From a virus (lineage: Duplodnaviria; Heunggongvirae; Uroviricota; Caudoviricetes), in the IMG/VR virus record IMGVR_UViG_2690316233_000002, positions 1 through 18,934 of that record: a DNA stretch of 18,934 bases; one strand, 5' to 3'. The notes below the pieces were generated by a model. The model searched no databases, was not told the origin of the DNA, and saw only the letters and a list, made by a program, of their open reading frames with translations. Below are positions 1 through 15,935 of this stretch, piece after piece. Numbering within the stretch: position 1 is the first letter of the stretch; every line of letters starts with the position of its first letter. The position numbers were made by a program, and so were the translations under genes.

Positions 1-168
1 GCAGATGAGCTTGTCCATATGACTGCGAGAATTAACCGTGGTGAGGCGATCCCTGAACCAGTAAAACAACTTCCTGTCATGGGCGGTAGACCTCTAAATC
101 GTGCACAGGCTCTGGCGAAGATCGCAGAACTCAAAGCTAAGTTCGGACTGAAAGGAGCAAGTGTATGA
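1..168 (+). CDS. 3' end of upstream gene (5'-truncated by the window), probably a lambda P-like replication protein C-terminus
   Basis: Frame 1 is open from base 1 to TGA at 166-168 (...RPLNRAQALAKIAELKAKFGLKGASV*). The stop overlaps the ren ATG (ATGA). Position directly upstream of ren matches lambda gene P; product assignment is from position and recalled similarity only. Confidence 0.5.
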   Translation, partial: ADELVHMTARINRGEAIPEPVKQLPVMGGRPLNRAQALAKIAELKAKFGLKGASV

Positions 169-455
169 CGGGCAAAGAGGCAATTATTCATTACCTGGGG
201 ACGCATAATAGCTTCTGTGCGCCGGACGTTGCCGCGCTAACAGGCGCAACAGTAACCAGCATAAATCAGGCCGCGGCTAAAATGGCACGGGCAGGTCTTC
301 TGGTTATCGAAGGTAAGGTCTGGCGAACGGTGTATTACCGGTTTGCTACCAAGGAAGAACGGGAAGGAAAGATGAGCACGAACCTAATTTTTAAGGAGTG
401 TCGCCAGAGTGCCGCGATGAAACGGGTATTGGCGGTATATGGAGTTAAAAGATGA
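165..455 (+). CDS. ren: Ren protein (Rex-exclusion escape), lambda-type
   Basis: 96 aa, the lambda Ren length; sequence MTGKEAIIHYLGTHNSFCAPDVAALTG... recalled as near-identical to lambda Ren. Sits immediately upstream of the nin region. Confidence 0.85.
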   Translation: MTGKEAIIHYLGTHNSFCAPDVAALTGATVTSINQAAAKMARAGLLVIEGKVWRTVYYRFATKEEREGKMSTNLIFKECRQSAAMKRVLAVYGVKR

Positions 456-480
456 CCATCTACATCACTGAGCTTGTAAC

Positions 481-513
481 AGGCCTGCTGGTAATCGCAG
501 GCCTTTTTATTTG
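481..513 (+). terminator. Rho-independent terminator-like hairpin (tR2-like) between ren and the next gene
   Basis: Perfect 8-bp inverted repeat AGGCCTGC (481-488) / GCAGGCCT (497-504) with an 8-nt loop, followed by TTTTTATTT. Confidence 0.6.
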
Positions 514-527
514 GGGGAGAGTAAATC

Positions 528-734
528 GTGGTTGAGTTGATTTTTTCTGCATTGAGGATTCTCGGTGCTATGTGGATGGTGGCGACGTTCATTGTGGTTG
601 CCAGCAGTTTTGTCCGGCTGGTAGGCGAAGGTAAAGACCTGGTTGGTGTGCTTTTCGGTAGCATTTTCCTGTGGGTGATTATCGGTGTTATGCCTGTTGT
701 CGTAGCAAAAGTGGCGTGGCGTTTTGTGAGTTGA
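528..734 (+). CDS. Small hydrophobic membrane protein (two predicted TM helices), function unknown
   Basis: 68-codon ORF starting at GTG 528 (in-frame TAA at 522-524 precludes extension). G-rich Shine-Dalgarno GGGGGAGAG at 512-520. Two long hydrophobic stretches (LIFSALRILGAMWMVATFIVVASSFV and LVGVLFGSIFLWVIIGVMPVVVA). No lambda counterpart at this position. Confidence 0.55.
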   Translation: MVELIFSALRILGAMWMVATFIVVASSFVRLVGEGKDLVGVLFGSIFLWVIIGVMPVVVAKVAWRFVS

Positions 735-741
735 GGTAACG

Positions 742-1152
742 ATGAAGCAAACAATCTTCCTCCGAACTAAGCAACAACAGCAAGCCGCAATCAACGCCAT
801 CCTCGCAACACCACTCGATAAAGACAAGCCAGTTACCATCCGCATTACTGACTACAAGCGCAACCTTGACCAGAACGCAAAATTTCACGCGATGGTCGCA
901 GATATCGCTAGGCAAGTTCAGTGGCGCGGCAAATGGTTAAAACCAGAACAATGGAAGGTTTTGTTGATAAGCGGTCATGCAGTGGCAACGAAACAGGAAG
1001 CTGATGTTTTACCCGGGCTTGAAGGCGAATGCGTCAACATTCGCGAAAGCAGCGCGCAGATGAGTGTGAAGCGTATGGCAAGTCTGATTGAGTACACGAC
1101 AGCATGGGCTATTGGTCAGGGTGTCAGATTTACCGACAGGAGGTACGAATGA
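742..1152 (+). CDS. ninB: Recombination protein NinB (Orf family)
   Basis: 136 aa; recalled similarity to lambda NinB (RNLDQN...F/W motifs, comparable length). GAGG Shine-Dalgarno upstream of ATG 742. First gene of the nin cluster. Confidence 0.85.
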
Positions 1153-1331
1153 GACGACAGCGACGAAGTTTCACCGACATCATCTGCGAAAACTGCAAAT
1201 ACCTTCCAACGAAACGCTCCAGAAATAAACGCAAGCCAATCCCAAAAGAATCTGACGTAAAAACCTTCAACTACACGGCTCACCTGTGGGATATCCGGTG
1301 GCTTAGAGAACGTGCGAGGAAAACAAGGTGA
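1149..1331 (+). CDS. ninE: NinE protein
   Basis: 60 aa from ATG 1149 ([23 protein letters not shown]...), matching lambda orf-60/NinE in length and sequence as recalled. ATGA overlap with the ninB stop. The ORF-track start at 1104 is an upstream extension overlapping ninB. Confidence 0.8.
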
Positions 1332-1498
1332 TTGACCAAAATCGAAGTTACGAACAAGAAAGCGTCGAGCGAGCTTTAACGTGCGCTAACTGCGGTCAGA
1401 AGCTGCATGTGCTGGAAGTTCACGTGTGCTCCGATTGCTGCGCAGAACTGATGAGCGATCCGAATAGCTCAATGTACGAGGAAGAAGACGATGGCTAA
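1328..1498 (+). CDS. ninF: NinF protein
   Basis: 56-codon ORF from GTG 1328 ([56 protein letters not shown]), matching lambda orf-56/NinF with a CxxC...CxxCC zinc-ribbon-like motif. GTGA overlap with the ninE stop. Below the 60-aa ORF-track cutoff. Confidence 0.75.
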
Positions 1499-2096
1499 AC
1501 CAGCGCGAAGGAAATGCAAAATATGCAAGGAATGGTTTCACCCGGCATTCTCAAATCAGTGGTGGTGCTGCCCGGAACACGGAACTCAATTAGCACTCGA
1601 ACGACGAAGTAAAGAACGCGAAAAAGCGGAAAAAGCAGCAGAGAAGAAACGACGACGAGATGAACAGAAACAGAAAGATAAACTTAAGATTCGAAAACTC
1701 GCCTTAAAGCCCCGCAGTTACTGGATTAAGCAAGCCCAACAAGCCGTAAACGCCTTCATCAGAGAAAGAGACCGCGACTTACCATGTATCTCGTGCGGAA
1801 CGCTCACGTCTGCTCAGTGGGATGCCGGACATTACCGGACAACTGCTGCGGCACCTCAACTCCGATTTGATGAACGCAATATTCACAAGCAATGCGTGGT
1901 GTGCAACCAGCACAAAAGCGGAAATCTCGTTCCGTATCGCGTCGAACTGATTAATCGCATCGGGCAGGAAGCAGTAGACGAAATCGAATCAAACCATAAC
2001 CGCCATCGCTGGACTATCGAAGAGTGCAAGGCGATCAAGGCAGAGTACCAACAGAAACTCAAAGACCTGCGAAATAGCAGAAGTGAGGCCGCATGA
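1491..2096 (+). CDS. ninG: Recombination protein NinG (Rap-like structure-specific endonuclease)
   Basis: 201 aa (lambda NinG is 204 aa). Cys-rich N-terminus ([10 protein letters not shown]...WWCCPEH) and HNH-like C-terminal motifs (CISCG...[11 protein letters not shown]). Sits in the ninF-ninH interval. Confidence 0.9.
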
Positions 2097-2299
2097 CGTT
2101 CTCAGTAAAAACCATTCCAGACATGCTCGTTGAAGCATACGGAAACCAGACAGAAGTAGCACGCAGACTGAAATGTAGTCGCGGCACGGTCAGAAAATAC
2201 GTTGATGATAAAGACGGGAAAATGCACGCCATCGTCAACTACGTTCTTATGGTTCATCGCGGATGGAGTGAAAGAGATGCGCTATTACGAAAGAATTGA
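2093..2299 (+). CDS. ninH: NinH protein
   Basis: 68 aa, the lambda NinH length; recalled near-identity ([36 protein letters not shown]...). ATGA overlap with the ninG stop. Confidence 0.9.
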
Positions 2300-2948
2300 T
2301 GGCAGCAAATACCGAAATATTTGGGTAGTTGGCGATCTGCACGGATGCTACACGAACCTGATGAAAAAACTGGAGACGATAGGATTCGACACCAAAAAAG
2401 ACCTGCTTATCTCGGTTGGCGATTTGGTCGATCGCGGTACAGAGAACGTCGAATGTCTGGAATTAATCACATTCCCCTGGTTCCGAGCTGTACGTGGAAA
2501 CCATGAGCAAATGATGATTGATGGCTTATCAGAGCGCGGAAACGTCAATCACTGGATGCTTAATGGCGGTGGCTGGTTCTTTAATCTCGATTACGACAAA
2601 GAAATTCTGGCTAAAGCTCTTGCCCATAAAGCAGAAGAACTTCCGTTAATCATCGAACTGGTGAGCAAAGATAAAAAATACGTCATCTGCCACGCCGATT
2701 ATCCCTGTGATGAATACGAGTTTGGAAAGCCAGTTGATCATCAGCAGGTAATCTGGAACCGCGAACGAATCAGCAACTCACAAGACGGGATCGTGAAAGA
2801 AATCAAAGGCGCGGACACGTTCATCTTTGGTCATACGCCAGCAGTGAAACCACTCAAGTTTGCCAACCAGATGTATATCGATACTAGGGCAGTGTTCTGC
2901 GGAAATCTCACATTGATTCAGGTACAGGGAGAAGGCGCATGGGCATAA
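2277..2948 (+). CDS. ninI: Ser/Thr protein phosphatase NinI (lambda PPase family)
   Basis: Calcineurin-like metallophosphatase motifs GDLHG, GDLVDRG, GNHE. Start chosen at the internal ATG 2277 ([23 protein letters not shown]...) to match the lambda PPase N-terminus; the ORF-track start at 2202 would overlap ninH extensively. Confidence 0.9.
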
Positions 2949-3457
2949 GAGAACTAAACCTCACCAAAGAGCAGCATGAGTGGCTGAATGGCTGGCTTGA
3001 ACTGTGGGGCGCATGGGTTTATTCAGGTCGTCTGGAAAAGCGCATGAGCAGCGTAATAGCGAAGTTCATGGAGAGCGTAGAGCCGGGAAGAGTTATGACA
3101 AGGCCAATGTGCAATGATGATGATGGAATGTTGATTTCTCAGGTCGTCGATTCCGTTATGTACATTGACAAAAAAGCCTTTGGCATCCTCCTCAGCTACT
3201 ACGCTCATGGTTCATCTAAGCGAGCAATTGCATCCTACTATCACGCGACTGCAAAGCCACGCAAGATGTGTGGACGTGGTGGCGAGGGATGGAGAAAACC
3301 TTCACTGGCAACCTGTAGAAACGAAATTGACGACATCCTGAAAGCGTCGTTATTTGTTTTGTACCAGCCAATGCAAAATGCTTTCAAAATGCGTAAACGT
3401 GTTGAGAAAGTTAAGCATGTTGCTGTTAAAAGCCTTGACATGCAATTATCCATTTAG
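2939..3457 (+). CDS. Q: Late-gene antiterminator Q, non-lambda type (phage 21/82/QuuD-like family)
   Basis: 172 aa with an ELWGAW...MCNDDDGM signature recalled from QuuD-type Q proteins. Lies between ninI and the late promoter and lysis genes. GGAGAAGG Shine-Dalgarno upstream; start overlaps the ninI stop. Confidence 0.75.
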
Positions 3458-3464
3458 CCATAAT
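3435..3464 (+). promoter_or_regulatory. Candidate late promoter pR' (sigma70 -35/-10), with the presumed Q-utilisation region
   Basis: TTGACA at 3435-3440, 18-nt spacer, CATAAT at 3459-3464, straddling the Q stop codon (3455-3457) as in lambdoid pR'. Confidence 0.5.
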
Positions 3465-3474
3465 TAGAAGGTAA

Positions 3475-3520
3475 GCTGCCGTTAGTGACTCTTAAGTTGC
3501 AACGGTGGCTTTTTTGTTTG
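3475..3520 (+). terminator. Candidate Q-regulated terminator (tR'-like): imperfect hairpin plus T-tract
   Basis: GCCGTT (3478-3483) pairs with AACGG(TG)GC (3501-3509) with one bulge, followed by CTTTTTTGTTTG (3510-3520), about 40 nt downstream of the predicted pR' start. Stem is imperfect. Confidence 0.35.
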
Positions 3521-3593
3521 CACAACAGGTAAGAGCATTGAACCCGCAGACCTCGCGGAATTGGCGAAAGGTGCCGCGCAGTGCTCTTATCGT

Positions 3594-3723
3594 TGTGGTG
3601 AAGCTCAATGGCGAGCTAGCAGATAGGCGATAGTGAAAATACTAGTCATGTAGCTGACCGCCGCGCGTACTGCAATCGGCAGCGCACCGATGGAAGCCGG
3701 TTCGATTCCGGCCGCCACAACCC
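3594..3723 (+). ncRNA. tRNA-like element: canonical T-arm, anticodon-arm-like hairpin and acceptor pairing, with a ~58 nt insertion; not a standard tRNA
   Basis: T-arm GCCGG-TTCGATT-CCGGC (3696-3712). Anticodon-like arm ATCGG-CAGCGCA-CCGAT (3675-3691). Acceptor pairing TGTGGTG (3594-3600) with CGCCACA (3713-3719). D-arm-like GCTC-AATGGC-GAGC (3603-3616). No encoded CCA (ACCC follows); position 33 is A rather than U. Confidence 0.3.
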
Positions 3724-3943
3724 AAACTGAGCCGTAGCCACTGGCTATCCTAGATTCATCAGTGATAGTTATGCTGCGGCCTTCTACACATGACCTTCGT
3801 GAAAGCGGGTAGCAAGAGGCTGCGCTAACAACCTCCTGCCGTTTTGCCCGTGCATATCGGTCACGAACAAATCTGATTACTAAACACAGTAGCCTGGATT
3901 TGTTCTATCAGTAATCGACCTTATTCCTAATTAAATAGAGCAA

Positions 3944-3974
3944 ATCCCCTTATTGGGGGTAAGACATGAAGATG
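3944..3974 (+). promoter_or_regulatory. S-gene translational control region: sdi-like stem-loop and dual start codons (Met1-Lys-Met3)
   Basis: Hairpin CCCC-TTATT-GGGG at 3946-3958 immediately upstream of ATG 3966 and ATG 3972 (ATGAAGATG), the lambda S107/S105 dual-start arrangement. Confidence 0.7.
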
Positions 3975-4289
3975 CCAGAAAAACATGACCTGTTGGCCGC
4001 CATTCTCGCGGCAAAGGAACAAGGCATCGGGGCAATCCTTGCGTTTGCAATGGCGTACCTTCGCGGCAGATATAATGGCGGTGCGTTTACAAAAACAGTA
4101 ATCGACGCAACGATGTGCGCCATTATCGCCTGGTTCATTCGTGACCTTCTCGACTTCGCCGGACTAAGTAGCAATCTCGCTTATATAACGAGCGTGTTCA
4201 TCGGCTATATCGGCACTGACTCGATTGGTTCGCTTATCAAACGCTTCGCTGCTAAAAAAGCCGGAGTAGAAGATGGTGGAAATCAATAA
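3966..4289 (+). CDS. S: Holin/antiholin S (class I, lambda S type)
   Basis: 107 aa beginning [34 protein letters not shown]..., recalled as near-identical to lambda S. Three hydrophobic TM segments; directly precedes the endolysin gene. Confidence 0.95.
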
Positions 4290-4749
4290 TCAACGTAAGG
4301 CGTTCCTCGATATGCTGGCGTGGTCGGAGGGAACTGATAACGGACGTCAGAAAACCAGAAATCATGGTTATGACGTCATTGTAGGCGGAGAGCTATTCAC
4401 TGATTACTCCGATCACCCTCGCAAACTTGTCACGCTAAACCCAAAACTCAAATCAACAGCAGCCGGACGTTACCAGCTTCTTTCCCGTTGGTGGGATGCC
4501 TATCGCAAGCAGCTCGGACTGAAAGACTTCTCTCCGAAAAGCCAGGACGCTGTGGCACTGCAACAGATTAAAGAGCGTGGCGCTTTACCGATGATTGATC
4601 GCGGTGATATCCGTCAGGCTATCGACCGTTGCAGCAATATCTGGGCTTCACTGCCGGGCGCTGGTTATGGTCAGTTCGAGCATAAGGCTGACAGCCTGAT
4701 TGCAAAATTCAAAGAAGCGGGTGGAACGGTCAGAGAGATTGAGGTATGA
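4273..4749 (+). CDS. R: Endolysin R (lambda-type lytic transglycosylase)
   Basis: 158 aa, [35 protein letters not shown]..., recalled as near-identical to lambda R. Start overlaps the S 3' end. Confidence 0.95.
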
Positions 4750-5183
4750 GCAGAGTAACCGCGATTATCTCCGCTCTGGTTATCTGCATCATCGTCTGTC
4801 TGTCATGGGCTGTTAATCATTACCGTGATAACGCCATGACCTACAAAGAGCAGCGCGATAAAGCCACATCCATCATCGCTGATATGCAGAAGCGTCAACG
4901 TGATGTAGCTGAACTCGATGCCAGATACACAAAGGAGCTTGCTGATGCTAACGCGACTATCGAAAGTCTCCGTGCTGATGTTTCTGCTGGGCGTAAGCGC
5001 CTGCAGGTCGCCGCCACCTGTGCAAAGTCAACGACCGGAGCCAGCGGCATGGGCGATGGAGAAAGCCCAAGACTTACAGCAGATGCTGAACTCAATTATT
5101 ACCGTCTCCGAAGTGGAATCGACAGGATAACCGCGCAGGTTAACTACCTGCAGGAATACATCAGGACGCAATGCCTTCGATGA
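4746..5183 (+). CDS. Rz: Inner-membrane spanin subunit Rz (i-spanin)
   Basis: 145 aa with an N-terminal TM helix ([18 protein letters not shown]) and a coiled-coil periplasmic domain. ATGA overlap with the R stop; N-terminus matches lambda Rz as recalled. Confidence 0.9.
4945..5130 (+). CDS. Rz1: Outer-membrane lipoprotein spanin subunit Rz1 (o-spanin), embedded in the +1 frame of Rz
   Basis: ORF wholly inside Rz in another frame. Signal peptide with lipobox-like LGVSAC followed by a proline-rich stretch ([12 protein letters not shown]), parallel to lambda Rz1. Start chosen at Met10 of the track ORF (4918); ATG 4978 is an alternative. Confidence 0.75.
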
Positions 5184-5583
5184 TAGCGATAATTTTACTC
5201 ATCATCCTTCACATCTGGCTCTGTAGACAGGGTGGTGATCACTTCTGGAGTGAATCCAGATTAAACATCTCATTGCTGATGCTTGATATTGAGCATCTGG
5301 CGCGCGGTAAGGGGCTGCGTTGAGATAAGAGCCAGTTCATTACAAAGCCTATCTACTGGTGGGCTTGATAATGAAACCGGAATTTATTCTGGGTAACCAG
5401 TTACGGCAGTACCGCGAAACAACCCAAGCCAGTAAGTGGGGAAATAACACTGGCAGCCACTGAAAGATGAACCTCCTGCCTTATGGCAAAAAAGATTCTT
5501 TGTGGTGGCGGACTGATGGAAAGACATCGGTTATTGCAGAGGCCATTCAATGAGTGGTCTCGACAATGGCTTATACCCTACAC

Positions 5584-5609
5584 GGGATAACTTAACTGAT
5601 ATCCCTTTT
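5584..5609 (+). terminator. Hairpin plus T-tract (weak intrinsic-terminator-like structure) upstream of the moron ORFs
   Basis: GGGATA (5584-5589) / TATCCC (5600-5605) with a 10-nt loop, followed by TTTT (5606-5609). AT-rich stem, so probably weak. Confidence 0.3.
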
Positions 5610-5630
5610 AACGGATAAACGGAGCCAACA

Positions 5631-5873
5631 ATGGCAGAGATTATTCCCATGACTGAAGAACAGAAATTCAAGTTAGAAATTTACCGACTGCTATCTAAGA
5701 ACAATTCAGCGGCAGAGGAAGCGTTTGCATTCATTGGTGCTGACCAGTTGAAACTGGAATTGTTCAAGTTGCACTACAACGATGGCGGTGCAAATCCAGA
5801 CTTCACATCTCGCACTATCGAAGCGGTGCGTAAATCGAAGGAAGCGTTAGACCTGTTCACTACCGGAGGGTAA
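5631..5873 (+). CDS. Hypothetical protein (80 aa), moron between lysis and packaging modules
   Basis: ORF with GGAG Shine-Dalgarno about 9 nt upstream of ATG 5631; 3-nt gap to the next ORF. No recognisable motif. Confidence 0.55.
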   Translation: MAEIIPMTEEQKFKLEIYRLLSKNNSAAEEAFAFIGADQLKLELFKLHYNDGGANPDFTSRTIEAVRKSKEALDLFTTGG

Positions 5874-5876
5874 GAG

Positions 5877-6164
5877 ATGACTGAACAAGAAATGCCGAGA
5901 TACCAGTGCCACAAAAAAGTTCGCGCCCTGAAGATTGGCTCTATAGAACATAAGCCAAACCCAGATCAGTCTGGTAAGACTGGCTCTTCTAGTTATGGGG
6001 CAATTATTCATCCGGATGATAAGAAATACGCAGCATTTGATGTTAGCGCGGAATATATCTGTAAGCACCGACCAATGTCTGGAGGCTATTACGTTGTCTA
6101 TGAGGATGGATATGAATCATATTCTCCTGCTGAGGTATTTGAGTCTGGATATTCAAAATTATAG
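5877..6164 (+). CDS. Hypothetical protein (95 aa), moron between lysis and packaging modules
   Basis: ORF with GGAGGG upstream of ATG 5877 and a Tyr/Gly-rich C-terminus. No recognisable catalytic motif. Confidence 0.6.
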   Translation: MTEQEMPRYQCHKKVRALKIGSIEHKPNPDQSGKTGSSSYGAIIHPDDKKYAAFDVSAEYICKHRPMSGGYYVVYEDGYESYSPAEVFESGYSKL

Positions 6165-6173
6165 GAATCCTCT

Positions 6174-6353
6174 ATGACAAGCGTCGTTGATCTTGGTAAG
6201 GAGAAGAAATTCCCAATTACTCAAGAGCTATACGAGAGGCTGGAAAGCGTCATTCATGATTACGATGGTGAAATCAGTTTATGCGAGGCGATTGGCACAC
6301 TTGAATTGCTGAAGCAGTCACTGATTGAAAGCGCGAAAGAGTCCTTAACCTGA
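6174..6353 (+). CDS. Hypothetical small protein (59 aa)
   Basis: ATG 6174 preceded by AGGA; translation MTSVVDLGKEKKFPITQELYERLESVIHDYDGEISLCEAIGTLELLKQSLIESAKESLT. Fills the gap before the small terminase gene; below the ORF-track cutoff. Confidence 0.4.
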   Translation: MTSVVDLGKEKKFPITQELYERLESVIHDYDGEISLCEAIGTLELLKQSLIESAKESLT

Positions 6354-6376
6354 AATAACAACTAAGTGAGATGAAT

Positions 6377-6799
6377 ATGGCGACTGAACCAAAAGCTGGT
6401 CGCCCCTCTGATTATATGCCGGAGGTGGCTGACGATATCTGCTCGTTGCTTTCTTCTGGCGAAAGTTTGCTGAAAGTATGTAAGCGTCCTGGTATGCCGG
6501 ATAAGTCCACTGTTTTCCGCTGGTTGGCAAAGCATGAGGATTTTCGCGACAAGTACGCGAAGGCAACTGAGGCACGAGCTGATTCTATTTTCGAAGAGAT
6601 ATTCGAAATTGCTGACAATGCGATTCCAGATGCTGCTGAGGTGGCAAAGGCAAGACTTCGCGTTGATACCCGCAAATGGGCGCTGGCCCGAATGAATCCC
6701 CGTAAGTATGGCGACAAGGTAACTAACGAGCTTGTCGGTAAGGACGGCGGCGCAATCCAGATTGAAACATCACCGATGAGCACTCTATTCGGAAAATGA
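6377..6799 (+). CDS. Terminase small subunit (Sf6 gp1-like)
   Basis: 140 aa from ATG 6377 (MATEPKAGRPSDYMPEVADDICSLL...), recalled as closely matching the Sf6 small terminase. ATG 6371 is an alternative start. Immediately precedes and overlaps the large terminase gene (ATGA). Confidence 0.8.
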   Translation: MATEPKAGRPSDYMPEVADDICSLLSSGESLLKVCKRPGMPDKSTVFRWLAKHEDFRDKYAKATEARADSIFEEIFEIADNAIPDAAEVAKARLRVDTRKWALARMNPRKYGDKVTNELVGKDGGAIQIETSPMSTLFGK

Positions 6800-8208
6800 C
6801 CTCGATTAATCCTATCTTTGAACCGTTCATTGAGGCGCATCGCTACAAAGTCGCCAAAGGCGGTCGAGGTAGCGGTAAGTCATGGGCAATTGCGAGGCTG
6901 CTTGTTGAAGCGGCGCGTCGGCAGCCTGTGCGTATTCTCTGCGCTCGTGAACTGCAAAACAGTATCAGCGATTCGGTAATCCGGTTGCTTGAAGATACCA
7001 TCGAGCGTGAAGGGTATTCGGCTGAGTTTGAAATTCAGCGTTCAATGATTCGTCATCTCGGATCGAATGCTGAGTTCATGTTCTACGGCATCAAAAACAA
7101 CCCGACGAAGATTAAATCGCTCGAAGGCATTGATATCTGCTGGGTGGAAGAAGCGGAAGCGGTAACGAAGGAATCATGGGATATCCTGATACCAACCATC
7201 CGTAAGCCGTTCTCTGAAATATGGGTGAGCTTTAACCCGAAAAACATCCTCGACGATACCTATCAGCGATTCGTCGTAAACCCTCCTGATGATATTTGTC
7301 TGCTGACGGTGAACTACACCGACAACCCGCACTTTCCTGAAGTTCTCCGCCTGGAGATGGAAGAGTGTAAACGCAGAAATCCGACCCTGTATCGTCACAT
7401 CTGGCTTGGTGAGCCAGTGAGCGCAAGTGATATGGCAATCATCAAACGTGAATGGCTTGAAGCTGCTACCGATGCGCACAAGAAACTCGGATGGAAAGCG
7501 AAAGGCGCGGTTGTTTCTGCGCATGACCCATCAGACACAGGGCCAGATGCTAAAGGTTACGCATCGCGTCACGGTTCGGTAGTTAAGCGCATTGCCGAAG
7601 GCCTGCTGATGGACATCAACGAGGGCGCTGACTGGGCTACTTCTCTGGCGATTGAAGACGGCGCTGACCACTACTTGTGGGATGGTGATGGTGTTGGTGC
7701 AGGTCTACGCAGACAGACAACGGAAGCGTTCTCCGGTAAGAAAATCACCGCCACGATGTTCAAGGGCAGCGAATCGCCATTCGATGAGGATGCGCCTTAT
7801 CAGGCCGGAGCATGGGCTGATGAAGTCGTGCAGGGCGACAACGTTCGCACTATTGGCGATGTATTCCGCAATAAGCGAGCGCAATTCTATTACGCGCTGG
7901 CTGACAGGCTGTATCTGACATATCGGGCGGTTGTTCACGGTGAGTATGCAGACCCCGACGACATGCTGAGTTTCGACAAAGAAGCGATAGGCGAGAAGAT
8001 GCTGGAGAAGCTGTTTGCAGAACTGACGCAGATTCAGCGCAAATTCAATAACAACGGGAAGCTTGAGCTAATGACTAAGGTCGAAATGAAGCAGAAGCTC
8101 GGTATTCCATCTCCTAACCTGGCTGATGCGTTGATGATGTGTATGCATTGCCCGGCATTGGCCCGCGAAGAAACAGAAATATACGTTCCCTCATCCTCCG
8201 GTTGGTAA
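6796..8208 (+). CDS. Terminase large subunit (headful-packaging ATPase/nuclease type)
   Basis: 470 aa with Walker A KGGRGSGKS and Walker B-like ICWVEEAE; length equals the Sf6 large terminase as recalled. Confidence 0.95.
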   Translation: MTSINPIFEPFIEAHRYKVAKGGRGSGKSWAIARLLVEAARRQPVRILCARELQNSISDSVIRLLEDTIEREGYSAEFEIQRSMIRHLGSNAEFMFYGIKNNPTKIKSLEGIDICWVEEAEAVTKESWDILIPTIRKPFSEIWVSFNPKNILDDTYQRFVVNPPDDICLLTVNYTDNPHFPEVLRLEMEECKRRNPTLYRHIWLGEPVSASDMAIIKREWLEAATDAHKKLGWKAKGAVVSAHDPSDTGPDAKGYASRHGSVVKRIAEGLLMDINEGADWATSLAIEDGADHYLWDGDGVGAGLRRQTTEAFSGKKITATMFKGSESPFDEDAPYQAGAWADEVVQGDNVRTIGDVFRNKRAQFYYALADRLYLTYRAVVHGEYADPDDMLSFDKEAIGEKMLEKLFAELTQIQRKFNNNGKLELMTKVEMKQKLGIPSPNLADALMMCMHCPALAREETEIYVPSSSGW

Positions 8209-8210
8209 AC

Positions 8211-10337
8211 ATGGCAGAGACATTAGAGAAAAAACATGAGCGGATCATGCTCAGGTTTGACCGCGCCTATTCTCCACAGCAGGAAGTGCGCGAAAAGTGC
8301 ATTGAAGCTACGAGGTTTGCTCGTGTCCCCGGAGGTCAATGGGAAGGAGCAACGGCGGCTGGAACTAAGCTTGATGAGCAGTTCGAGAAGTATCCTAAGT
8401 TTGAAATCAATAAGGTAGCAACTGAACTTAACCGCATCATTGCAGAATACCGCAATAACAGAATCACCGTTAAGTTTCGTCCTGGTGACAGAGAGGCAAG
8501 CGAAGAGTTAGCCAATAAATTAAATGGTCTGTTCCGTGCTGACTACGAAGAAACTGATGGCGGTGAGGCTTGCGATAATGCATTTGACGACGCTGCTACT
8601 GGTGGTTTCGGTTGCTTCCGTTTGACGTCGATGCTGGTCAATGAATACGACCCCATGGACGATCGTCAGCGTATTGCTATTGAACCGATATACGACCCGT
8701 CGCGCTCTGTGTGGTTTGACCCTGACGCTAAGAAATACGACAAATCTGACGCGTTGTGGGCGTTCTGCATGTATTCGTTGTCACCTGAAAAATATGAGGC
8801 TGAATACGGAAAGAAACCTCCTGCTTCTCTGGACGTAACGTCTATGACCAGTTGGGAATATGACTGGTTTGATGCAGATGTTATTTACATAGCGAAGTAT
8901 TACGAAGTTCGTAAAGAGTCTGTTGATGTTATCAGTTATCGACATCCAATCACTGGAGAGATTGCAACATACGACAGTGATCAGGTCGAAGATATTGAAG
9001 ATGAACTGGCAATAGCTGGATTTCAGGAAGTTGCAAGGCGCTCAGTGAAGCGCCGTCGTGTGTATGTATCAGTAGTGGATGGTGATGGTTTCCTTGAGAA
9101 ACCTCGACGTATTCCTGGTGAGCATATCCCCCTCATCCCGGTTTATGGAAAACGCTGGTTCATTGATGACATTGAGCGTGTCGAAGGGCACATTGCAAAA
9201 GCAATGGATCCACAGCGTTTGTACAACCTTCAGGTTTCAATGCTGGCTGATACTGCAGCACAAGACCCCGGTCAGATCCCTATAGTTGGCATGGAGCAAA
9301 TTCGTGGACTTGAGAAGCACTGGGAGGCTCGCAACAAGAAACGCCCAGCGTTCTTGCCGTTGCGCGAAGTGAGAGATAAATCTGGCAACATTATCGCTGG
9401 AGCTACCCCGGCAGGATATACACAGCCTGCGGTTATGAATCAGGCATTGGCTGCATTACTACAGCAAACCAGTGCTGATATTCAGGAGGTTACAGGCGGC
9501 AGTCAGGCCATGCAGCAGATGCCAAGTAATATTGCTCAGGAAACGGTTAACAACTTGATGAACAGAGCAGATATGGCTTCGTTTATCTATCTGGACAATA
9601 TGGCGAAAAGTCTTAAACGCGCTGGTGAAGTATGGCTGTCAATGGCGCGTGAAGTGTACGGTTCAGAACGTGAAGTGCGCATCGTTAACGAAGATGGAAG
9701 TGATGATATCGCTGTCCTGAGCGCACAGGTTGTTGACAGGCAAACAGGGGCTGTTGTTGCGTTAAATGACCTTTCTGTCGGTCGATACGATGTGACGGTT
9801 GATGTTGGACCAAGCTACACAGCACGACGTGATGCAACGGTTTCTGTACTGACAAATGTCCTTAGCTCTATGCTTCCAACAGACCCAATGCGCCCGGCAA
9901 TTCAGGGTATTATTCTGGACAATATCGATGGCGAAGGCCTTGATGACTTCAAAGAGTACAACCGAAACCAACTGCTGATATCTGGTATTGCAAAACCACG
10001 CAATGAGAAAGAGCAGCAGATTGTTCAACAGGCGCAAATGGCAGCACAAAGCCAGCCAAATCCTGAAATGGTTCTCGCTCAGGCGCAAATGGTAGCAGCG
10101 CAGGCAGAAGCGCAAAAAGCAACTAACGAAACTGCTCAAACTCAAATCAAAGCATTTACTGCCCAGCAGGATGCGATGGAGAGTCAGGCAAACACTGTCT
10201 ATAAACTGGCTCAAGCCAGAAACATCGATGACAAAGCAGTGATGGAGGCAATACGCCTTCTGAAAGATGTCGCCGAGTCACAACAACAGCAATTCCAGTC
10301 ACCACCACAGTCACCGGCAGACTTAATGCCGAGTTAA
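8211..10337 (+). CDS. Portal protein (P22 gp1 / Sf6 gp3-like)
   Basis: 708 aa from ATG 8211, directly after the terminase TAA (8206-8208). Conserved blocks recalled from the P22 portal (KRRRVY, GEHIPLIPV) and a long Q/A-rich helical C-terminus. The ORF-track start at 8139 overlaps the terminase gene. Confidence 0.9.
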   Translation: MAETLEKKHERIMLRFDRAYSPQQEVREKCIEATRFARVPGGQWEGATAAGTKLDEQFEKYPKFEINKVATELNRIIAEYRNNRITVKFRPGDREASEELANKLNGLFRADYEETDGGEACDNAFDDAATGGFGCFRLTSMLVNEYDPMDDRQRIAIEPIYDPSRSVWFDPDAKKYDKSDALWAFCMYSLSPEKYEAEYGKKPPASLDVTSMTSWEYDWFDADVIYIAKYYEVRKESVDVISYRHPITGEIATYDSDQVEDIEDELAIAGFQEVARRSVKRRRVYVSVVDGDGFLEKPRRIPGEHIPLIPVYGKRWFIDDIERVEGHIAKAMDPQRLYNLQVSMLADTAAQDPGQIPIVGMEQIRGLEKHWEARNKKRPAFLPLREVRDKSGNIIAGATPAGYTQPAVMNQALAALLQQTSADIQEVTGGSQAMQQMPSNIAQETVNNLMNRADMASFIYLDNMAKSLKRAGEVWLSMAREVYGSEREVRIVNEDGSDDIAVLSAQVVDRQTGAVVALNDLSVGRYDVTVDVGPSYTARRDATVSVLTNVLSSMLPTDPMRPAIQGIILDNIDGEGLDDFKEYNRNQLLISGIAKPRNEKEQQIVQQAQMAAQSQPNPEMVLAQAQMVAAQAEAQKATNETAQTQIKAFTAQQDAMESQANTVYKLAQARNIDDKAVMEAIRLLKDVAESQQQQFQSPPQSPADLMPS

Positions 10338-10350
10338 CCAGGAGTAATCA

Positions 10351-11235
10351 ATGGAAAACGAACTGATCATCGACGGTCAGGTTATTGACCTGTCTGAAAC
10401 ACAGGAAAATGCAGAAGAAACCATCATCCAAACAGAGTCACAGCCTGAGAATGAAAGCCAGGATGACAACGGTAAAGAGGTGGAAACTGAGCCTGAAAAA
10501 ACCGAAGAGACACCAGAAGATTACGCCTTGCGTATTGGTGATGAAGAAATTCAGCTTAACGCTGACGATGATGATCACATTGACGGGCAACCTGCACCGC
10601 AATGGGTGAAAGATCTTCGCAAAGGCTTCAAAGAAACACAGAAAGAAAACCGTGAGTTGCGCCGCCAGCTTGAGGAAGCATTAGCCAAGCCAGCGGAACA
10701 TCAGCAACCACAACCAGACGCTATTCCACCAAAACCGACTCTTGAGTCGTGTGATTATGACGAACAGGCGTTTGAACAGGCATTGACTGATTGGCATGAG
10801 AAAAAAGGCCGTGTCGAACAGCAGCAGCAACAAAAACTACGTCAGCAACAGGAATACCAACAGCGTTTCCAGCAAAGGGTAGAAGCGCATAAACAACGGG
10901 CAGCCAAACTTCCTGTGAAAGATTATCAGGAAATGGAAGCCATTGTTCTTAGTGAGCTACCACCAATTCAGCAGGAAATCATCATTCACTGTGCAGACGA
11001 AGGCTCTGAACTACTCGCCTATGGCTTAGGTAAGAGCCAGCAATTACGCCAGCGTGTAGCCGCTGAGACAGATCCAATTCGCGCAGCATTCCTCTTGGGG
11101 CAGATTAGCAAACAGGTAAGCCTTGCTCCAAAACCAAAGAAAGCCATCAAGCCAGAGCCGGAAGTACGTGGTGGCGGTGCTGATGCGAAACAAGACGAAT
11201 TCAACAAATTATGCCCCGGCGCAAAAATCGAATAA
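10351..11235 (+). CDS. Scaffolding protein (P22 gp8-like)
   Basis: 294 aa between portal and coat genes. Highly acidic N-terminus, Gln/Glu-rich coiled-coil centre and a helical basic C-terminal region. AGGAG Shine-Dalgarno upstream. Confidence 0.75.
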   Translation: MENELIIDGQVIDLSETQENAEETIIQTESQPENESQDDNGKEVETEPEKTEETPEDYALRIGDEEIQLNADDDDHIDGQPAPQWVKDLRKGFKETQKENRELRRQLEEALAKPAEHQQPQPDAIPPKPTLESCDYDEQAFEQALTDWHEKKGRVEQQQQQKLRQQQEYQQRFQQRVEAHKQRAAKLPVKDYQEMEAIVLSELPPIQQEIIIHCADEGSELLAYGLGKSQQLRQRVAAETDPIRAAFLLGQISKQVSLAPKPKKAIKPEPEVRGGGADAKQDEFNKLCPGAKIE

Positions 11236-11246
11236 GGAAAAGATAA

Positions 11247-12518
11247 ATGCCTAACAATCTCGACAGTAACGTCAGTCAAATCGTTCTGAAAAAATTCCTT
11301 CCGGGTTTTATGTCAGATTTAGTTCTGGCGAAAACCGTAGACCGTCAGTTGCTGGCAGGTGAAATCAACTCCAGCACTGGCGATAGCGTTAGCTTTAAAC
11401 GTCCGCATCAATTCTCATCCCTCCGTACTCCCACTGGTGATATTTCAGGGCAAAATAAAAACAACCTGATCTCAGGTAAAGCTACGGGGCGTGTAGGTAA
11501 CTACATCACTGTTGCTGTTGAATATCAGCAACTGGAGGAAGCGATCAAGCTTAACCAGCTGGAAGAAATTCTCGCGCCGGTTCGCCAGCGAATCGTTACC
11601 GACCTTGAAACAGAGCTTGCTCACTTCATGATGAATAACGGTGCGTTGTCACTTGGTAGCCCCAATACTCCAATCACCAAATGGTCTGATGTTGCGCAGA
11701 CGGCATCTTTCCTGAAAGACCTCGGCGTTAATGAAGGTGAAAACTATGCTGTAATGGATCCATGGTCTGCACAGCGACTTGCTGATGCGCAGACTGGTTT
11801 GCATGCTTCAGATCAATTGGTTCGTACTGCATGGGAGAACGCACAGATCCCAACCAATTTTGGCGGCATTCGCGCACTGATGTCTAATGGGCTTGCCTCT
11901 CGTACGCAGGGGGCATTTGGCGGAACACTGACAGTCAAAACACAGCCAACTGTTACCTATAACGCAGTTAAAGACTCATACCAGTTCACTGTAACATTGA
12001 CCGGAGCGACAGCCAGCGTTACAGGTTTTCTGAAAGCTGGTGATCAGGTCAAATTCACCAATACCTACTGGCTGCAACAGCAGACCAAACAGGCGTTGTA
12101 TAACGGAGCCACACCAATTAGCTTCACTGCAACGGTTACTGCTGATGCTAATTCAGACAGCAGTGGCGATGTGACGGTTACGCTTTCTGGTGTTCCGATT
12201 TATGACACTACAAACCCGCAGTACAACTCTGTAAGTCGTCAGGTAGAGGCAGGCGATGCCGTATCTGTAGTAGGCACTGCTAGCCAGACAATGAAGCCAA
12301 ACCTGTTCTATAACAAGTTCTTCTGTGGACTTGGCTCTATCCCACTGCCGAAACTGCACAGTATTGATTCTGCTGTTGCAACATATGAAGGTTTCTCCAT
12401 CCGCGTACATAAATACGCAGATGGCGATGCCAACGTGCAAAAAATGCGCTTCGACTTACTGCCTGCATATGTGTGCTTTAACCCTCACATGGGCGGTCAG
12501 TTCTTCGGTAATCCGTAA
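11247..12518 (+). CDS. Major capsid (coat) protein (Sf6 gp5-like)
   Basis: 423 aa, the recalled Sf6 coat length, directly after the scaffold gene with AAGGAAAAG upstream. Followed by a strong terminator, as expected for the most abundant late product. Confidence 0.8.
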   Translation: MPNNLDSNVSQIVLKKFLPGFMSDLVLAKTVDRQLLAGEINSSTGDSVSFKRPHQFSSLRTPTGDISGQNKNNLISGKATGRVGNYITVAVEYQQLEEAIKLNQLEEILAPVRQRIVTDLETELAHFMMNNGALSLGSPNTPITKWSDVAQTASFLKDLGVNEGENYAVMDPWSAQRLADAQTGLHASDQLVRTAWENAQIPTNFGGIRALMSNGLASRTQGAFGGTLTVKTQPTVTYNAVKDSYQFTVTLTGATASVTGFLKAGDQVKFTNTYWLQQQTKQALYNGATPISFTATVTADANSDSSGDVTVTLSGVPIYDTTNPQYNSVSRQVEAGDAVSVVGTASQTMKPNLFYNKFFCGLGSIPLPKLHSIDSAVATYEGFSIRVHKYADGDANVQKMRFDLLPAYVCFNPHMGGQFFGNP

Positions 12519-12522
12519 TAAC

Positions 12523-12550
12523 AAGGGGCTTACGCCCCTTTTATGTTTTA
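12523..12550 (+). terminator. Rho-independent terminator downstream of the coat gene
   Basis: AGGGGC (12524-12529) / GCCCCT (12534-12539) GC-rich stem with a 4-nt loop, followed by TTTTATGTTTT. Confidence 0.8.
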
Positions 12551-12560
12551 AGGAAACAAT

Positions 12561-12746
12561 ATGGATCGGATGAGTGTATTCCTTGCCGCAGATAACGAAT
12601 CCGGGCATGTACAGGCCGTTATCGCAGAAAAAGACTTCCAGTTTTTCGAAAGGTTGGGCTTTGTTGCCTCAGTTGATGAATTGAAACCGACCAGTAAGCG
12701 AGGTCGTAAGGCGGCAGACAATGGCAACAGTACTGACAAAGGGTGA
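12561..12746 (+). CDS. Hypothetical small protein (61 aa) following the coat gene
   Basis: ORF with AAGGA upstream of ATG 12561; overlaps the next gene by 26 nt. No motif recognised. Confidence 0.4.
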   Translation: MDRMSVFLAADNESGHVQAVIAEKDFQFFERLGFVASVDELKPTSKRGRKAADNGNSTDKG

Positions 12747-13203
12747 GATCGTCCTTTTTGCGCTTCGTAAGTTTGCTATTGCTTCTAATGCATCGCTGAC
12801 TGATGTTGAGCCGCAATCAATTGAAGATGGTGTAAATGATCTGGAAGATATGATGTCCGAGTGGATGATTAACCCCGGCGACATTGGTTACGCTTTCGCA
12901 ACTGGAGATGATCAGCCATTACCAGATGATGAGTCAGGTCTTCCAAGAAAATACAAACACGCAGTAGGCTATCAGTTATTGCTGAGAATGCTATCTGATT
13001 ACAGCCTTGAACCAACTCAGCAAGTTCTCAGTAACGCCCAACGCTCATATGATGCCTTGATGACCGACACTCTGGTTGTTCCTTCAATGCGACGACGTGG
13101 AGATTTTCCTGTAGGGCAGGGTAATAAATATGACGTGTTCACATCTGACCGATATTATCCAGGCGATCTCCCTCTGATTGATGGCGATATCCCAAACGCA
13201 TAG
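12721..13203 (+). CDS. Head-completion / tail accessory protein (P22 gp4-like)
   Basis: 160 aa; the N-terminus (TKGEIVLFALRKFAIASNASLTDVEPQS...DLEDMMSEW) matches the P22 gp4 N-terminus as recalled. Correct position after the coat gene. Confidence 0.75.
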   Translation: MATVLTKGEIVLFALRKFAIASNASLTDVEPQSIEDGVNDLEDMMSEWMINPGDIGYAFATGDDQPLPDDESGLPRKYKHAVGYQLLLRMLSDYSLEPTQQVLSNAQRSYDALMTDTLVVPSMRRRGDFPVGQGNKYDVFTSDRYYPGDLPLIDGDIPNA

Positions 13204-13211
13204 GTGAATAA

Positions 13212-14630
13212 ATGCCTATTCAGCAACTTCCGCTTATGAAAGGTGTCGGCAAAGACTTTAGAAACGCCGACTATATCGACTATCTGCCAGTGAATATGTT
13301 GGCTACACCCAAAGAAATCCTGAACAGCAGCGGATATCTTCGCTCATTCCCGGGCATTGCCAAACGTTCTGATGTGAACGGCGTATCGCGCGGAGTTGAG
13401 TACAACATGGCGCAGAGTGCTGTTTATCGCGTGTGTGGCGGCAAGCTGTACAAAGGAGAAAGTGAAGTCGGTGATGTTGCCGGAAGTGGTCGTGTATCAA
13501 TGGCGCATGGTCGGACATCTCAGGCTGTAGGCGTTAATGGCCAACTGGTCGAGTATCGTTATGATGGCACGGTTAAAACAGTCTCAAACTGGCCTACAGA
13601 CAGAGGATTCACACAGTACGAGTTAGGTTCAGTTCGCGACATTACGCGCTTACGTGGGCGTTATGCGTGGTCAAAAGACGGAACTGATTCATGGTTTATC
13701 ACTGACCTTGAAGACGAATCGCATCCTGACCGCTACAGCGCACAATATCGCGCAGAATCGCAGCCGGACGGCATCATCGGTATCGGCACATGGCGAGACT
13801 TCATCGTCTGCTTTGGTTCATCGACGATTGAATATTTCTCCCTGACGGGTGCAACCACCGTTGGTGCTGCTTTGTATGTCGCACAGCCATCTCTTATGGT
13901 GCAGAAAGGCATTGCCGGGACTTACTGCAAAACGCCGTTTGCTGATTCGTATGCGTTCATCAGCAATCCGGCAAATGGTGCGCCGTCTGTATACATCATC
14001 GGCTCCGGTCAGGTATCACCAATCGCTAGCGCGAGCATTGAGAAAATTCTTCGCTCCTACACTGCTGATGAACTGGCTGATGGCGTGATGGAATCGTTGC
14101 GCTTTGATGCTCATGAGTTGCTGATTATCCACCTGCCGCGCCACGTCCTCGTGTATGACGCATCTTCAAGCGCCAATGGTCCGCAATGGTGTGTACTGAA
14201 AACAGGCCTGTATGACGATGTGTACCGCGCTATCGACTTCATTTACGAAGGCAATCAGATAACGTGCGGCGATAAGCTGGAATCGGTGACCGGGAAATTG
14301 CAGTTCGATATCAGTAGTCAGTATGGGCTTCAACAGGAACACCTGCTGTTTACTCCACTCTTCAAAGCAGATAACGCCAGATGCTTTGATCTGGAGGTGG
14401 AATCATCGACGGGTGTTGCTCAGTACGCTGACCGCCTGTTCCTCTCTGCAACCACTGACGGCATAAATTACGGTCGTGAGCAGATGATTGAGCAGAATGA
14501 ACCGTTCGTTTACGACAAACGCGTTTTGTGGAAGCGTGTCGGGCGAATCAGGAAAAATGTCGGCTTCAAACTTCGCGTTATCACGAAGTCACCTGTCACT
14601 CTGTCTGGCGCTCAGATAAGGATTGAGTAA
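13212..14630 (+). CDS. Head-completion / tail accessory protein (P22 gp10-like)
   Basis: 472 aa, the P22 gp10 length, positioned between the gp4-like and tail-needle genes. Assignment is mainly by size and synteny. Confidence 0.7.
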
Positions 14631-15478
14631 TGGCGGATTCGAATCTCAATGTGCCGGTAATCATTCAGGCTACACGGCTCGATACATCAGTCCTTCCACG
14701 CAATATCTTCTCGCAGTCGTATCTGCTTTACGTTATCGCACAGGGCACTGATGTTGGTAACGTGGCTAACAAGGCCAACGAGGCCGGACAGGGCGCTTAT
14801 GATGCACAGGTCAGGAACGATGAGCAGGATGTGATTCTCGCTGACCATGAGCAGCGAATTTCTGCTGCGGAAGCAACGCTTGTTAATCATGAGGAGCGAA
14901 TCAGCCAGGCAGAATCAACTCTTCAGGAACATGAAACACGAATAGCTCAGAATGAAAGCGATATTGCGTCGCTTGACACAAGAGTTCAGTCGCTGGAGTC
15001 GCAGGTTTCAGACCATGAAACGCGCATCGATGCTCTGGAGTATGCCACTACTCGCAAGAAGTCAGAGGTTGTTTACTCTGGCGTATCTGTAACCATCCCG
15101 ACAGCGCCTACCAACCTTGTTAGCCTGCTGAAAACGCTCACGCCGTCATCAGGAACGTTGGCACCATTCTTCGACACCGTTAACAACAAGATGGTTGTGT
15201 TCAACGAGAACAAAACCCTGTTCTTCAAGCTGTCGATTGTCGGGACGTGGCCCAGCGGAACCTCCAACAGGTCAATGCAGCTAACATTTTCCGGTTCTGT
15301 ACCTGACACACTGGTAAGCAGTCGTAACTCGGCGACAACAACCGATAACATCCTGTTAGCTACGTTCTTCAGCGTGGATAAAGACGGCTTTCTTGCCACA
15401 AATGGCAGCACGTTAACCATTCAGTCAAATGGTGCGGCGTTTACTGCCACAACCATCAAGATAATCGCGGAGCAGTGA
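14630..15478 (+). CDS. Tail needle protein (P22 gp26-like N-terminus and coiled coil, divergent C-terminal domain)
   Basis: 282 aa; N-terminus [43 protein letters not shown]... recalled as strongly similar to P22 gp26. Repeated HE-RI heptad coiled-coil segment, then a C-terminal region unlike the P22 gp26 tip. TAATG overlap with the upstream gene. Confidence 0.85.
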
Positions 15479-15933: not shown

Positions 15934-15935
15934 CC

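Follow-up and report, generated by a model that had tools for sequence, protein, structure and literature searches.

In a repressed lambda lysogen the nin genes are silent. They form a delayed-early, N-dependent and dispensable set (PMC10695390; PMC8022706) in which ATGA-type overlaps couple one gene tightly to the next (PMC8022706). A 26/27-codon ORF that runs across the terminator tR2 is named NinA in the literature and in the HK620, P22 and SPN9CC records; its initiation site is active in lambda (Li et al., PMC4824070), and its translation lowers the efficiency of tR2 by only ~10% (PMC4824070). In a number of related phages a small gene of the PHROG 1165 family lies directly behind this terminator. 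The gene considered here, orf68, shares both the family and the place with HK75 gp43, HK022_58, SPN9CC_0027, WP_000229808.1 and B7MH01_ECO45, and there is no difference of substance between them.

orf68 was analyzed in a window of 18,934 nucleotides (positions 1 to 18,934 of IMG/VR record IMGVR_UViG_2690316233_000002), the right-hand portion of a coliphage or prophage of the P22-like kind (HK620/Sf6-type), which combines a lambda-type early-right operon with P22-like structural genes that follow the lysis cassette. The genes run in the order ren, NinA/tR2, orf68, ninB, ninE, ninF, ninG, ninH, a NinI-type phosphatase gene and Q. The upstream neighbor, ren, encodes a Ren-like exclusion protein (165-455, + strand; PHROG 142, E 3.6e-42) and is annotated as 'protein ren' in an identical prophage; the downstream neighbor, ninB, encodes a recombination mediator (742-1152, + strand; Pfam NinB, E 4e-55). 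Between ren and orf68 lies NinA, a hydrophobic 27-codon ORF that spans the tR2 hairpin and T-tract (452-535, + strand; PHROG 5907, E 1.1e-18) and is identical to HK620 NinA NP_112059. Lying on the PR transcript behind tR2 and ahead of Q, with overlaps or short spacers to its neighbors, orf68 has the placement of a nin gene.

The intrinsic terminator tR2 occupies positions 481-512 of the + strand. Its hairpin (481-504) pairs AGGCCTGC at 481-488 with GCAGGCCT at 497-504, forming 8 bp, 6 of them G-C, around an 8-nt loop (489-496), and is followed by the T-tract TTTTATTT at 505-512. This element is called a terminator because it is identical, base for base, to the experimentally studied lambda tR2 (PMC4824070), and not on the strength of a simple pattern scan, which performs no better than chance (1 site versus 1.4 +/- 1.2 in shuffled sequence). 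The hairpin bears the annotation 'terminator tR2' in the HK620 and HK75 records, and exact matches to it occur in no fewer than 120 viral contigs. The terminator scan of positions 1-1500 detected no second site beyond tR2. A Trp_leader look-alike that Rfam places over NinA and tR2 was rejected, with a score of 18 bits against a cutoff of 41.

Directly behind the T-tract comes a Shine-Dalgarno element, GGGGGAGAG (513-521, + strand), delimited from an alignment of the window with lambda, HK75, HK620 and SPN9CC and from leader strings in 117 loci. All five aligned phages have exactly the same hairpin, T-tract and GGGGGAGAG, and the NinA ORF is conserved in each. Upstream, the end of ren is common to the window and lambda only; HK75, HK620 and SPN9CC carry a DnaB-type helicase gene instead. 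Downstream, the five phages diverge directly 3' of the Shine-Dalgarno: lambda proceeds to the ATG of ninB, which GGGGGAGAG serves in that phage, and the window proceeds to orf68. The alignment places a mosaic junction immediately 3' of GGGGGAGAG. The initial annotation held that the ren-ninB interval of lambda is devoid of genes and that orf68 is an insertion between the two. The first statement stands insofar as orf68 is absent from lambda and the lambda RefSeq record has no annotation in this interval, but it overlooks the NinA ORF. The second needs qualifying: tR2 and the Shine-Dalgarno are both those of lambda, and orf68 occupies the normal position of a first nin gene, not an odd place.

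orf68 itself (528-734, + strand) extends from a GTG start at 528 to a TGA stop at 732-734 and would specify a 68-aa protein, a predicted two-helix inner-membrane member of PHROG 1165; the GGAG core of its Shine-Dalgarno (516-519) lies 8 nt from the GTG. These elements had all been recognized in the initial annotation, which described a GTG-initiated 68-codon ORF with a G-rich Shine-Dalgarno behind a perfect 8-bp GC-rich hairpin and T-tract, and all are present, the last as lambda tR2. A TAA triplet at 522-524, in the orf68 frame and one codon 5' of the GTG, makes an N-terminal extension impossible; Salmonella gene calls of 90-94 aa are regarded as caller artefacts, the window having this in-frame stop one codon before the start. 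Internal ATG starts at codon 15 or 17, preferred by some annotators, were also rejected: Met is missing from these codons in HK620-type and Salmonella alleles, and it is the codon-1 GTG/ATG with its Shine-Dalgarno, not the internal ATGs, that is kept across orf68 alleles.

The reading frames of this region interlock. The ren TGA stop overlaps the NinA ATG as ATGA at 452-455, NinA ends inside orf68 with an 8-nt overlap at 528-535 (GTGGTTGA), and the GAGG Shine-Dalgarno of ninB (733-736) overlaps the orf68 stop codon; judged by its layout, the series ren/NinA/orf68/ninB is a classic case of nin-gene translational coupling. NinA and orf68 are both small and hydrophobic and sit side by side in one operon, but they use different frames and belong to different families (PHROG 5907 versus PHROG 1165), with orf68 starting 8 nt before NinA ends. 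The 26-27-codon ORF that begins at an ATGA overlap and spans tR2 is the one at 452-535, not orf68. Some database records put the name 'NinA' beside or over the orf68 region.

What follows the shared leader is variable. The first downstream gene was classified in 120 IMG/VR contigs with an exact 38-nt string comprising tR2 and the Shine-Dalgarno. In 60/120 contigs it is ninB and in 30/120 it is orf68 (26 copies intact, 2 cut by contig ends, 1 with a nonsense mutation and 1 with a frameshift); the others carry a protein of 108 aa anchored in the membrane by its N terminus (phrog_5903; 13/120), a 92-100-aa acidic protein (phrog_343; 7/120), a 71-75-aa basic protein (6/120), a DUF4752 protein with an N-terminal hydrophobic segment (phrog_667; 2/120) or another short ORF (2/120). 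As this survey indicates, the first position behind tR2 in the PR operon can be taken by at least six interchangeable cassettes, orf68 among them. Profile comparison detected no relationship between the 108-aa cassette protein and orf68. The surroundings of orf68 change as well. Upstream lies ren in the window, mEpX1 and H-19B, a DnaB-type helicase gene in HK75, HK620 and SPN9CC, and HK022_57 in HK022; downstream, ninB follows directly in the window, HK75 and HK620, and other small genes, a Sf6 gene 48-like gene among them, follow in HK022, mEp213, phiv205-1 and SPN9CC. orf68 travels with tR2 and the common Shine-Dalgarno while its neighbors on both sides vary. The suggestion that it is a variable insertion of lambdoid nin regions is borne out by this comparison: the gene is missing from lambda and comes first in only part of the tR2 contigs.

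Comparative evidence identifies orf68 as a genuine protein-coding gene. Alleles that range from 100% to 43% amino acid identity (HK75, HK022, HK620, mEp213 and SPN9CC; E. coli and Salmonella phages) all have exactly 68 codons and show no indels. E. coli alleles start with GTG and Salmonella alleles with ATG, in both cases at the same site behind the same Shine-Dalgarno. Between allele types, dN/dS by the Nei-Gojobori method lies at 0.25-0.33, with dS of 1.1-1.9, and pooled pN/pS is 0.43-0.58 within allele types; selective constraint on orf68, as estimated from these ratios, is moderate, not strong. Among 29 distinct alleles, variable columns are distributed 37/25/48 over codon positions 1/2/3, and the other two sense frames and one antisense frame contain stops in 29/29; only the + frame is always open. 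Remote homologues of 63-66 aa, with 30-36% identity, retain W16, F47, W49, G53, P56, K61 and W64 along with the hydropathy profile; two of these are found in the early regions of other temperate phages, beside NinX, DUF1367, Lar-like and DUF4752 genes.

The interval could instead be conserved for a feature of the other strand, either one of the long antisense ORFs present in the window (139 aa at 335-754; 112 aa at 507-845) or a non-coding RNA. However, these antisense frames are open in only 22/29 and 14/29 distinct alleles, the substitution pattern fits the + frame, and the ORFs themselves extend over ren, tR2 and ninB; they were dismissed as real genes for lack of frame conservation. An Rfam scan of positions 300-1000 returned no family at threshold and no sRNA. 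The probability of an other-strand feature is negligible.

A minority of orf68 copies is disrupted. A GGA>TGA nonsense mutation at codon 15 is common to H-19B, a Stx1a phage related to it and a single IMG/VR contig; in Salmonella phage 146851_sal5, 1 nt is deleted at codon 61, and one further contig has a 5' frameshift. In H-19B and 146851_sal5 the flanks are conserved around the broken frame, a situation which the initial annotation had singled out as evidence against the gene. It does occur, but in an unbiased IMG/VR sample 26/28 complete copies are intact, and this combination points to dispensability rather than to non-coding status. orf68 is dispensable: it has been lost in viable phages such as H-19B.

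The same disrupted copies, together with lambda, which does without orf68, could be taken to mean that the product is irrelevant and that the ORF is either a decaying remnant or is kept for ribosome cover between tR2 and ninB, serving coupling and protection from Rho. The coupling of nin genes by ATGA-type overlaps (PMC8022706) and the way in which NinA, orf68 and ninB overlap or abut are compatible with such a role. Yet a spacer would drift to a dN/dS near 1 and vary in length, whereas W16, W49, G53, P56, K61, W64 and the two-helix pattern persist down to 30% identity in different phage contexts, and most complete copies are intact (26/28); this explanation is very unlikely. That orf68 is a real gene and encodes a small membrane protein of two helices, as first described, is upheld by the conservation of length, start and dN/dS, by hydropathy and by an AlphaFold2 hairpin.

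A scan of positions 1-1500 found no sigma-70-like promoter, although a weak internal promoter could escape this crude consensus search. Within the reach of that scan, orf68 does not have the equipment of a moron, i.e., its own promoter upstream and its own terminator downstream. From its position and from lambda biology, orf68 would depend for its transcription on read-through of tR2 by N-modified RNA polymerase; since NinA translation cuts tR2 efficiency by only ~10%, ribosome-mediated read-through is no substitute for N. The dependence on antitermination proposed at the outset agrees with these findings: transcription must pass tR2, and the crude scan of 1-1500 offers no promoter from which it could bypass the terminator. 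orf68 would be a delayed-early gene, expressed upon infection or induction and silent in a quiescent lysogen. Translation would begin at GTG528 from the Shine-Dalgarno that serves ninB in lambda, and ribosomes terminating NinA synthesis 8 nt downstream may add to orf68 initiation. Overall, orf68 is most likely a non-essential, N-dependent delayed-early gene.

The predicted protein is extremely hydrophobic, with a GRAVY of 1.60 and two Kyte-Doolittle peaks (19-residue window) of 2.1 at residues 11-29 and 2.6 at residues 41-59. Helix 1 (codons 11-29; 558-614, + strand) is variable, with W16 as its only invariant residue. It is followed by the loop R-LVGEGKD-L (codons 30-38; 615-641, + strand), which has a conserved G35-K36-D37 turn and a net charge of ~0, and by helix 2 (codons 39-60; 642-707, + strand), in which F47, W49, G53 and P56 are invariant and V57 and A60 nearly so. 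The C-terminal tail KVAWRFVS (codons 61-68; 708-731, + strand) holds K61 and W64. AlphaFold2, run on a 24-sequence alignment, models helices at 2-33 and 38-67 with a mean pLDDT of 89.5 and a pTM of 0.66, a confidently predicted helical hairpin of two very hydrophobic helices; the two helices proposed in the initial annotation are thus seen by both methods. The conserved PHROG 1165 residues (W16, W49, G53, P56, K61, W64) and the two-helix hairpin are present in orf68. Across the family the termini carry on average 3.0 K/R versus 0.8 D/E and the loop 2.0 versus 1.9, which weakly favors a topology with both ends cytoplasmic and a short periplasmic turn, the positive-inside signal being weak at 3 versus 2 K/R. 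A profile search of PDB sequences produced 0 matches at E <= 10, and Foldseek found nothing at E <= 0.001 in BFVD and PDB. Foldseek matches above that threshold are generic helical hairpins (an uncharacterised protein of Escherichia phage 172-1, ATP-synthase chains, LH1 subunits) and are uninformative for a two-helix model.

Size and architecture invite comparison with class II holins. Like the phage 21 pinholin S21-68, orf68 is a phage-encoded protein of ~68 residues with two transmembrane helices, and as an extremely hydrophobic member of this size class it might damage the membrane, as a pinholin-like or type-I-toxin-like depolarizer or as a lysis-timing modulator that acts on the S holin. 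By contrast with the pinholin, orf68 has no sequence or HMM similarity to holins, no dual-start motif and no charged C-terminal tail, and it belongs to the early operon upstream of Q in a phage that already possesses an S-family holin. The lysis cassette is complete: the holin gene (3966-4286; Pfam match), a gene in the R position without a Pfam match (4273-4746) and Rz (4746-5180; Pfam match) together span 3966-5183, ~3.2 kb downstream of orf68. Of the four defining features of a holin, only the two transmembrane segments in ~70 residues are found, and the family HMM match, the lysis-cassette site and the charged tail (here 8 residues with 2 charges) are not; orf68 is not a holin.

Toxins fare no better. 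No holin or toxin HMM matches orf68, and the helices contain almost no hydroxyl or other polar residues that could line a pore; the scarcity of polar residues and the eight-residue tail, KVAWRFVS, argue against both a hydrophilic pore and a holin-like trigger. Type I toxins of the Hok/Ldr/TisB-like kind are single helices of <60 aa controlled by a cis-antisense RNA antitoxin, whereas orf68 has two helices and 68 aa, and the Rfam scan revealed no antisense RNA family. A type I toxin identity was rejected on these grounds, with no Rfam sRNA in 300-1000 and no Pfam match, and a membrane-damaging activity in any of the above forms is quite improbable.

The pattern of conservation suggests a different role. 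Alignments show helix 2 and the short tail to be far better conserved than helix 1, and the spacing of positions 49, 53, 56/57, 60 and 64 (i, i+4, i+7, i+11, i+15) puts them on one helical face. In the proposed mechanism, orf68 would insert in the inner membrane, its two ends facing the cytoplasm, and would work not as a pore but as a small modulator embedded in the membrane: the conserved helix-2 face (W49-G53-P56/V57-A60-W64), with the juxtamembrane K61/R65, would bind to an inner-membrane protein of the host or of the phage and tune a membrane process important in lytic growth. The most plausible targets would be a host membrane-based defense or stress response, or the DNA entry of competing phages. 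Precedents of a mechanistic kind are the hydrophobic mini-proteins AcrZ, MgrB and SgrT; as in orf68, a conserved transmembrane face suggests binding to a larger membrane protein, but they show no homology to orf68 and are mostly single-helix host proteins. This mechanism is the least certain part of the account; partner binding by helix 2 rests only on the conservation pattern, which intramolecular packing or homo-oligomerization could also produce. Accordingly graded by parts, orf68 is very probably a real gene for a small membrane hairpin and an N-dependent accessory nin gene; that it works as a binding modulator is a tentative proposal, possible but doubtful; and for the two combined, accessory nin gene, N-dependent expression and helix-2 modulator mechanism, the chances are evenly balanced.

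One specific form of interference with competitors would be superinfection exclusion during the lytic cycle, in which the hairpin alters the inner-membrane entry route and blocks later-arriving phage DNA in the manner of T4 Imm. Exclusion genes are often variable between related phages, and orf68, which encodes a small two-helix protein, is early, dispensable and variable between related phages; the phrog_5903 and DUF4752 cassettes, inspected by eye, have hydrophobic N-terminal segments too. Membrane exclusion proteins of small size, T4 Imm included, are early inner-membrane proteins of phages and plausible functional analogues. However, orf68 has no detectable homology to them, matching no annotated superinfection-exclusion or defense family in PHROGs and nothing in PADLOC. 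Temperate-phage exclusion genes usually act in the lysogen, which would stay unprotected here, as no promoter was found. Lytic exclusion of this type is unlikely. The initial annotation had named host takeover, superinfection exclusion and abortive infection as candidate functions. Of these, exclusion expressed from the lysogen and abortive infection are disfavored because they need expression from the prophage and orf68 has no detected promoter of its own, while a lytic-cycle role such as host takeover is compatible with the evidence.

A bolder version would make orf68 the founder of a new class of lytic-cycle, membrane-embedded counter-defense or exclusion factors that are made only after N antitermination; this is distinctly improbable. 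If true, orf68 might neutralize a membrane-acting abortive-infection effector of the host or of a prophage, e.g., a RexB-type channel, and so complement ren, and the phrog_5903 and DUF4752 cassettes would be functional alternatives aimed at other targets. For now, orf68 counts as one ordinary 'hypothetical protein' among those encoded in the mosaic nin region, and it does not overturn current understanding.

The family has been catalogued already. orf68 matches PHROG 1165 over its full length (E 6.7e-36, residues 1-68 versus profile positions 1-68 of 68), and its only PHROG matches, 1165 and 4532, are families of unknown function; searches of Pfam (E <= 1), NCBIfam and PADLOC profiles gave no match. 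The HMM comparison with Pfam and PHROGs, advised when the gene was first described, thus ends in a single full-length family, and any implication that the gene had gone unnoticed must be withdrawn: homologues are annotated as 'unknown' or 'hypothetical' in HK75 (HK75_43; gp43, ADO67670), HK022 (HK022_58), mEpX1, mEp213 (mEp213_058), SPN9CC (SPN9CC_0027) and Stx2 phage 86, and the protein is identical to RefSeq WP_000229808.1, a PGAP 'hypothetical protein', with 100% DNA identity. HK630 and phiv205-1 annotate the homologue with a shortened start, at 52-54 aa, although the phiv205-1 copy is 100% identical to orf68 over residues 2-68 (tblastn); in the HK620 and H-19B records it is left unannotated. 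A full-text literature search that included accession numbers and locus tags retrieved no functional work on orf68. The locus represents ordinary phage mosaicism and not a new kind of system.

The family is common within narrow limits. tblastn places orf68 in 107/50,697 phage records, including 48 Stx2a-converting, 24 Escherichia and 22 Salmonella phages; the exact protein, UniProt B7MH01_ECO45, occurs on at least 1000 contigs; and megablast finds the window-type allele, always chromosomal, in at least 448/5,426 complete E. coli genomes. When 1.84 billion representative proteins were searched exhaustively with HMMER, only 17 clusters matched; one 375-aa repetitive match looks spurious and was set aside. 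A scan of species-representative genomes yielded only Escherichia contigs and three apparently mis-binned MAG contigs. On these searches the family is narrow and essentially enterobacterial. Within that range, no fewer than 8% of the complete E. coli genomes carry it, and it is present in the 48 Stx2a-converting phage records, in HK022, HK75 and HK620, and in P22-like Salmonella phages. The value of orf68 lies in its being common, compact and experimentally tractable, notably in Stx2a phages, and the position behind tR2 is a compact and easily manipulated hotspot for accessory early genes. If orf68 does modulate the host membrane at induction, it could affect phage yield and hence the spread of Shiga-toxin phages.

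Exchange has also reached into the gene itself. The last 63 nt of orf68 (672-734, + strand) are identical between window-type and HK620-type alleles, and some database matches cover only query positions 145-207; upstream of this block, protein identity between the two types, counted by eye on the alignment, is ~36%. An identical 3' end joined to a diverged remainder marks a recombination boundary inside orf68.

Directly 3' of the tR2 terminator and the Shine-Dalgarno string lies a slot that is filled by at least six alternative first genes among the 120 IMG/VR loci (L014–L133) carrying this exact sequence: ninB, orf68, phrog_5903, phrog_343, a gene for a 71–75-aa basic protein, and DUF4752. 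The phrog_5903 cassette protein is 108 aa long, with a putative membrane anchor at its N-terminus. A hydrophobic segment in each of the orf68, phrog_5903 and DUF4752 products, recognized by eye and, for orf68 only, by computed hydropathy, suggests that all three may be membrane-anchored. The final 63 nt of orf68 (window 672–734) and the ninB sequence beyond are identical to HK620 (L002, 1722–1784), while the first 47 codons specify proteins with only about 36% identity (counted by eye) between the window and HK620 types. Judged from this alignment, the mosaic boundary between the two alleles falls within orf68 itself.

The gene is naturally broken, with its flanks intact, in four loci, which are available as null controls. 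A GGA to TGA change at codon 15 is present in both H-19B (L006, 1195–1401) and the IMG/VR locus L028, a 5' frameshift disrupts orf68 in a second IMG/VR locus, L064, and 146851_sal5 (L007, 1201–1515) has lost a single nucleotide from a run of A residues at codon 61, which results in a 104-aa fusion call. Database records treat orf68 inconsistently: internal ATG starts yield 52- or 54-aa products in HK630 (L001, 1626–1784) and phiv205-1 (L009, 1240–1404), and the gene is unannotated in HK620 and H-19B. Some Salmonella alleles are called as 90–94 aa, which would mean reading through tR2.

tR2 is itself spanned by the 27-codon NinA ORF (window 452–535; MTIYITELVTGLLVIAGLFIWGRVNRG), which shares ATGA with the ren stop at its 5' end and extends 8 nt inside orf68 at its 3' end. 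NinA is hydrophobic (GRAVY 1.13), like orf68, and the arms of the tR2 hairpin code for GLLVIAGLF, the core stretch of NinA that resembles a membrane segment. In an Rfam scan of this region, the sole match was a sub-threshold Trp_leader look-alike at 421–510, which scored 18 bits (cutoff 41). On the minus strand, ORFs of 139 aa (window 335–754) and 112 aa (507–845) span ren, tR2, orf68 and ninB; their frames are open in only 22 and 14 of 29 orf68 alleles, respectively. Both look like by-products, the complement of hydrophobic codons being stop-poor.

Copies of orf68 with 85–100% identity to the coliphage gene occur on MAG contigs (L135, L137 and L138) labeled Cellvibrionaceae, Bacillota and Collinsella; mis-binning of contigs from enterobacterial phages almost certainly accounts for them. 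A 100% identical copy resides in E. coli RM14723 (L013, 17170–33319), within a defective prophage adjoining mdtABCD-baeSR. An IS3 element truncates the integrase and replication gene P of this prophage, and its capsid gene is cut as well; what remains intact is the ren-orf68-nin-Q-lysis block.
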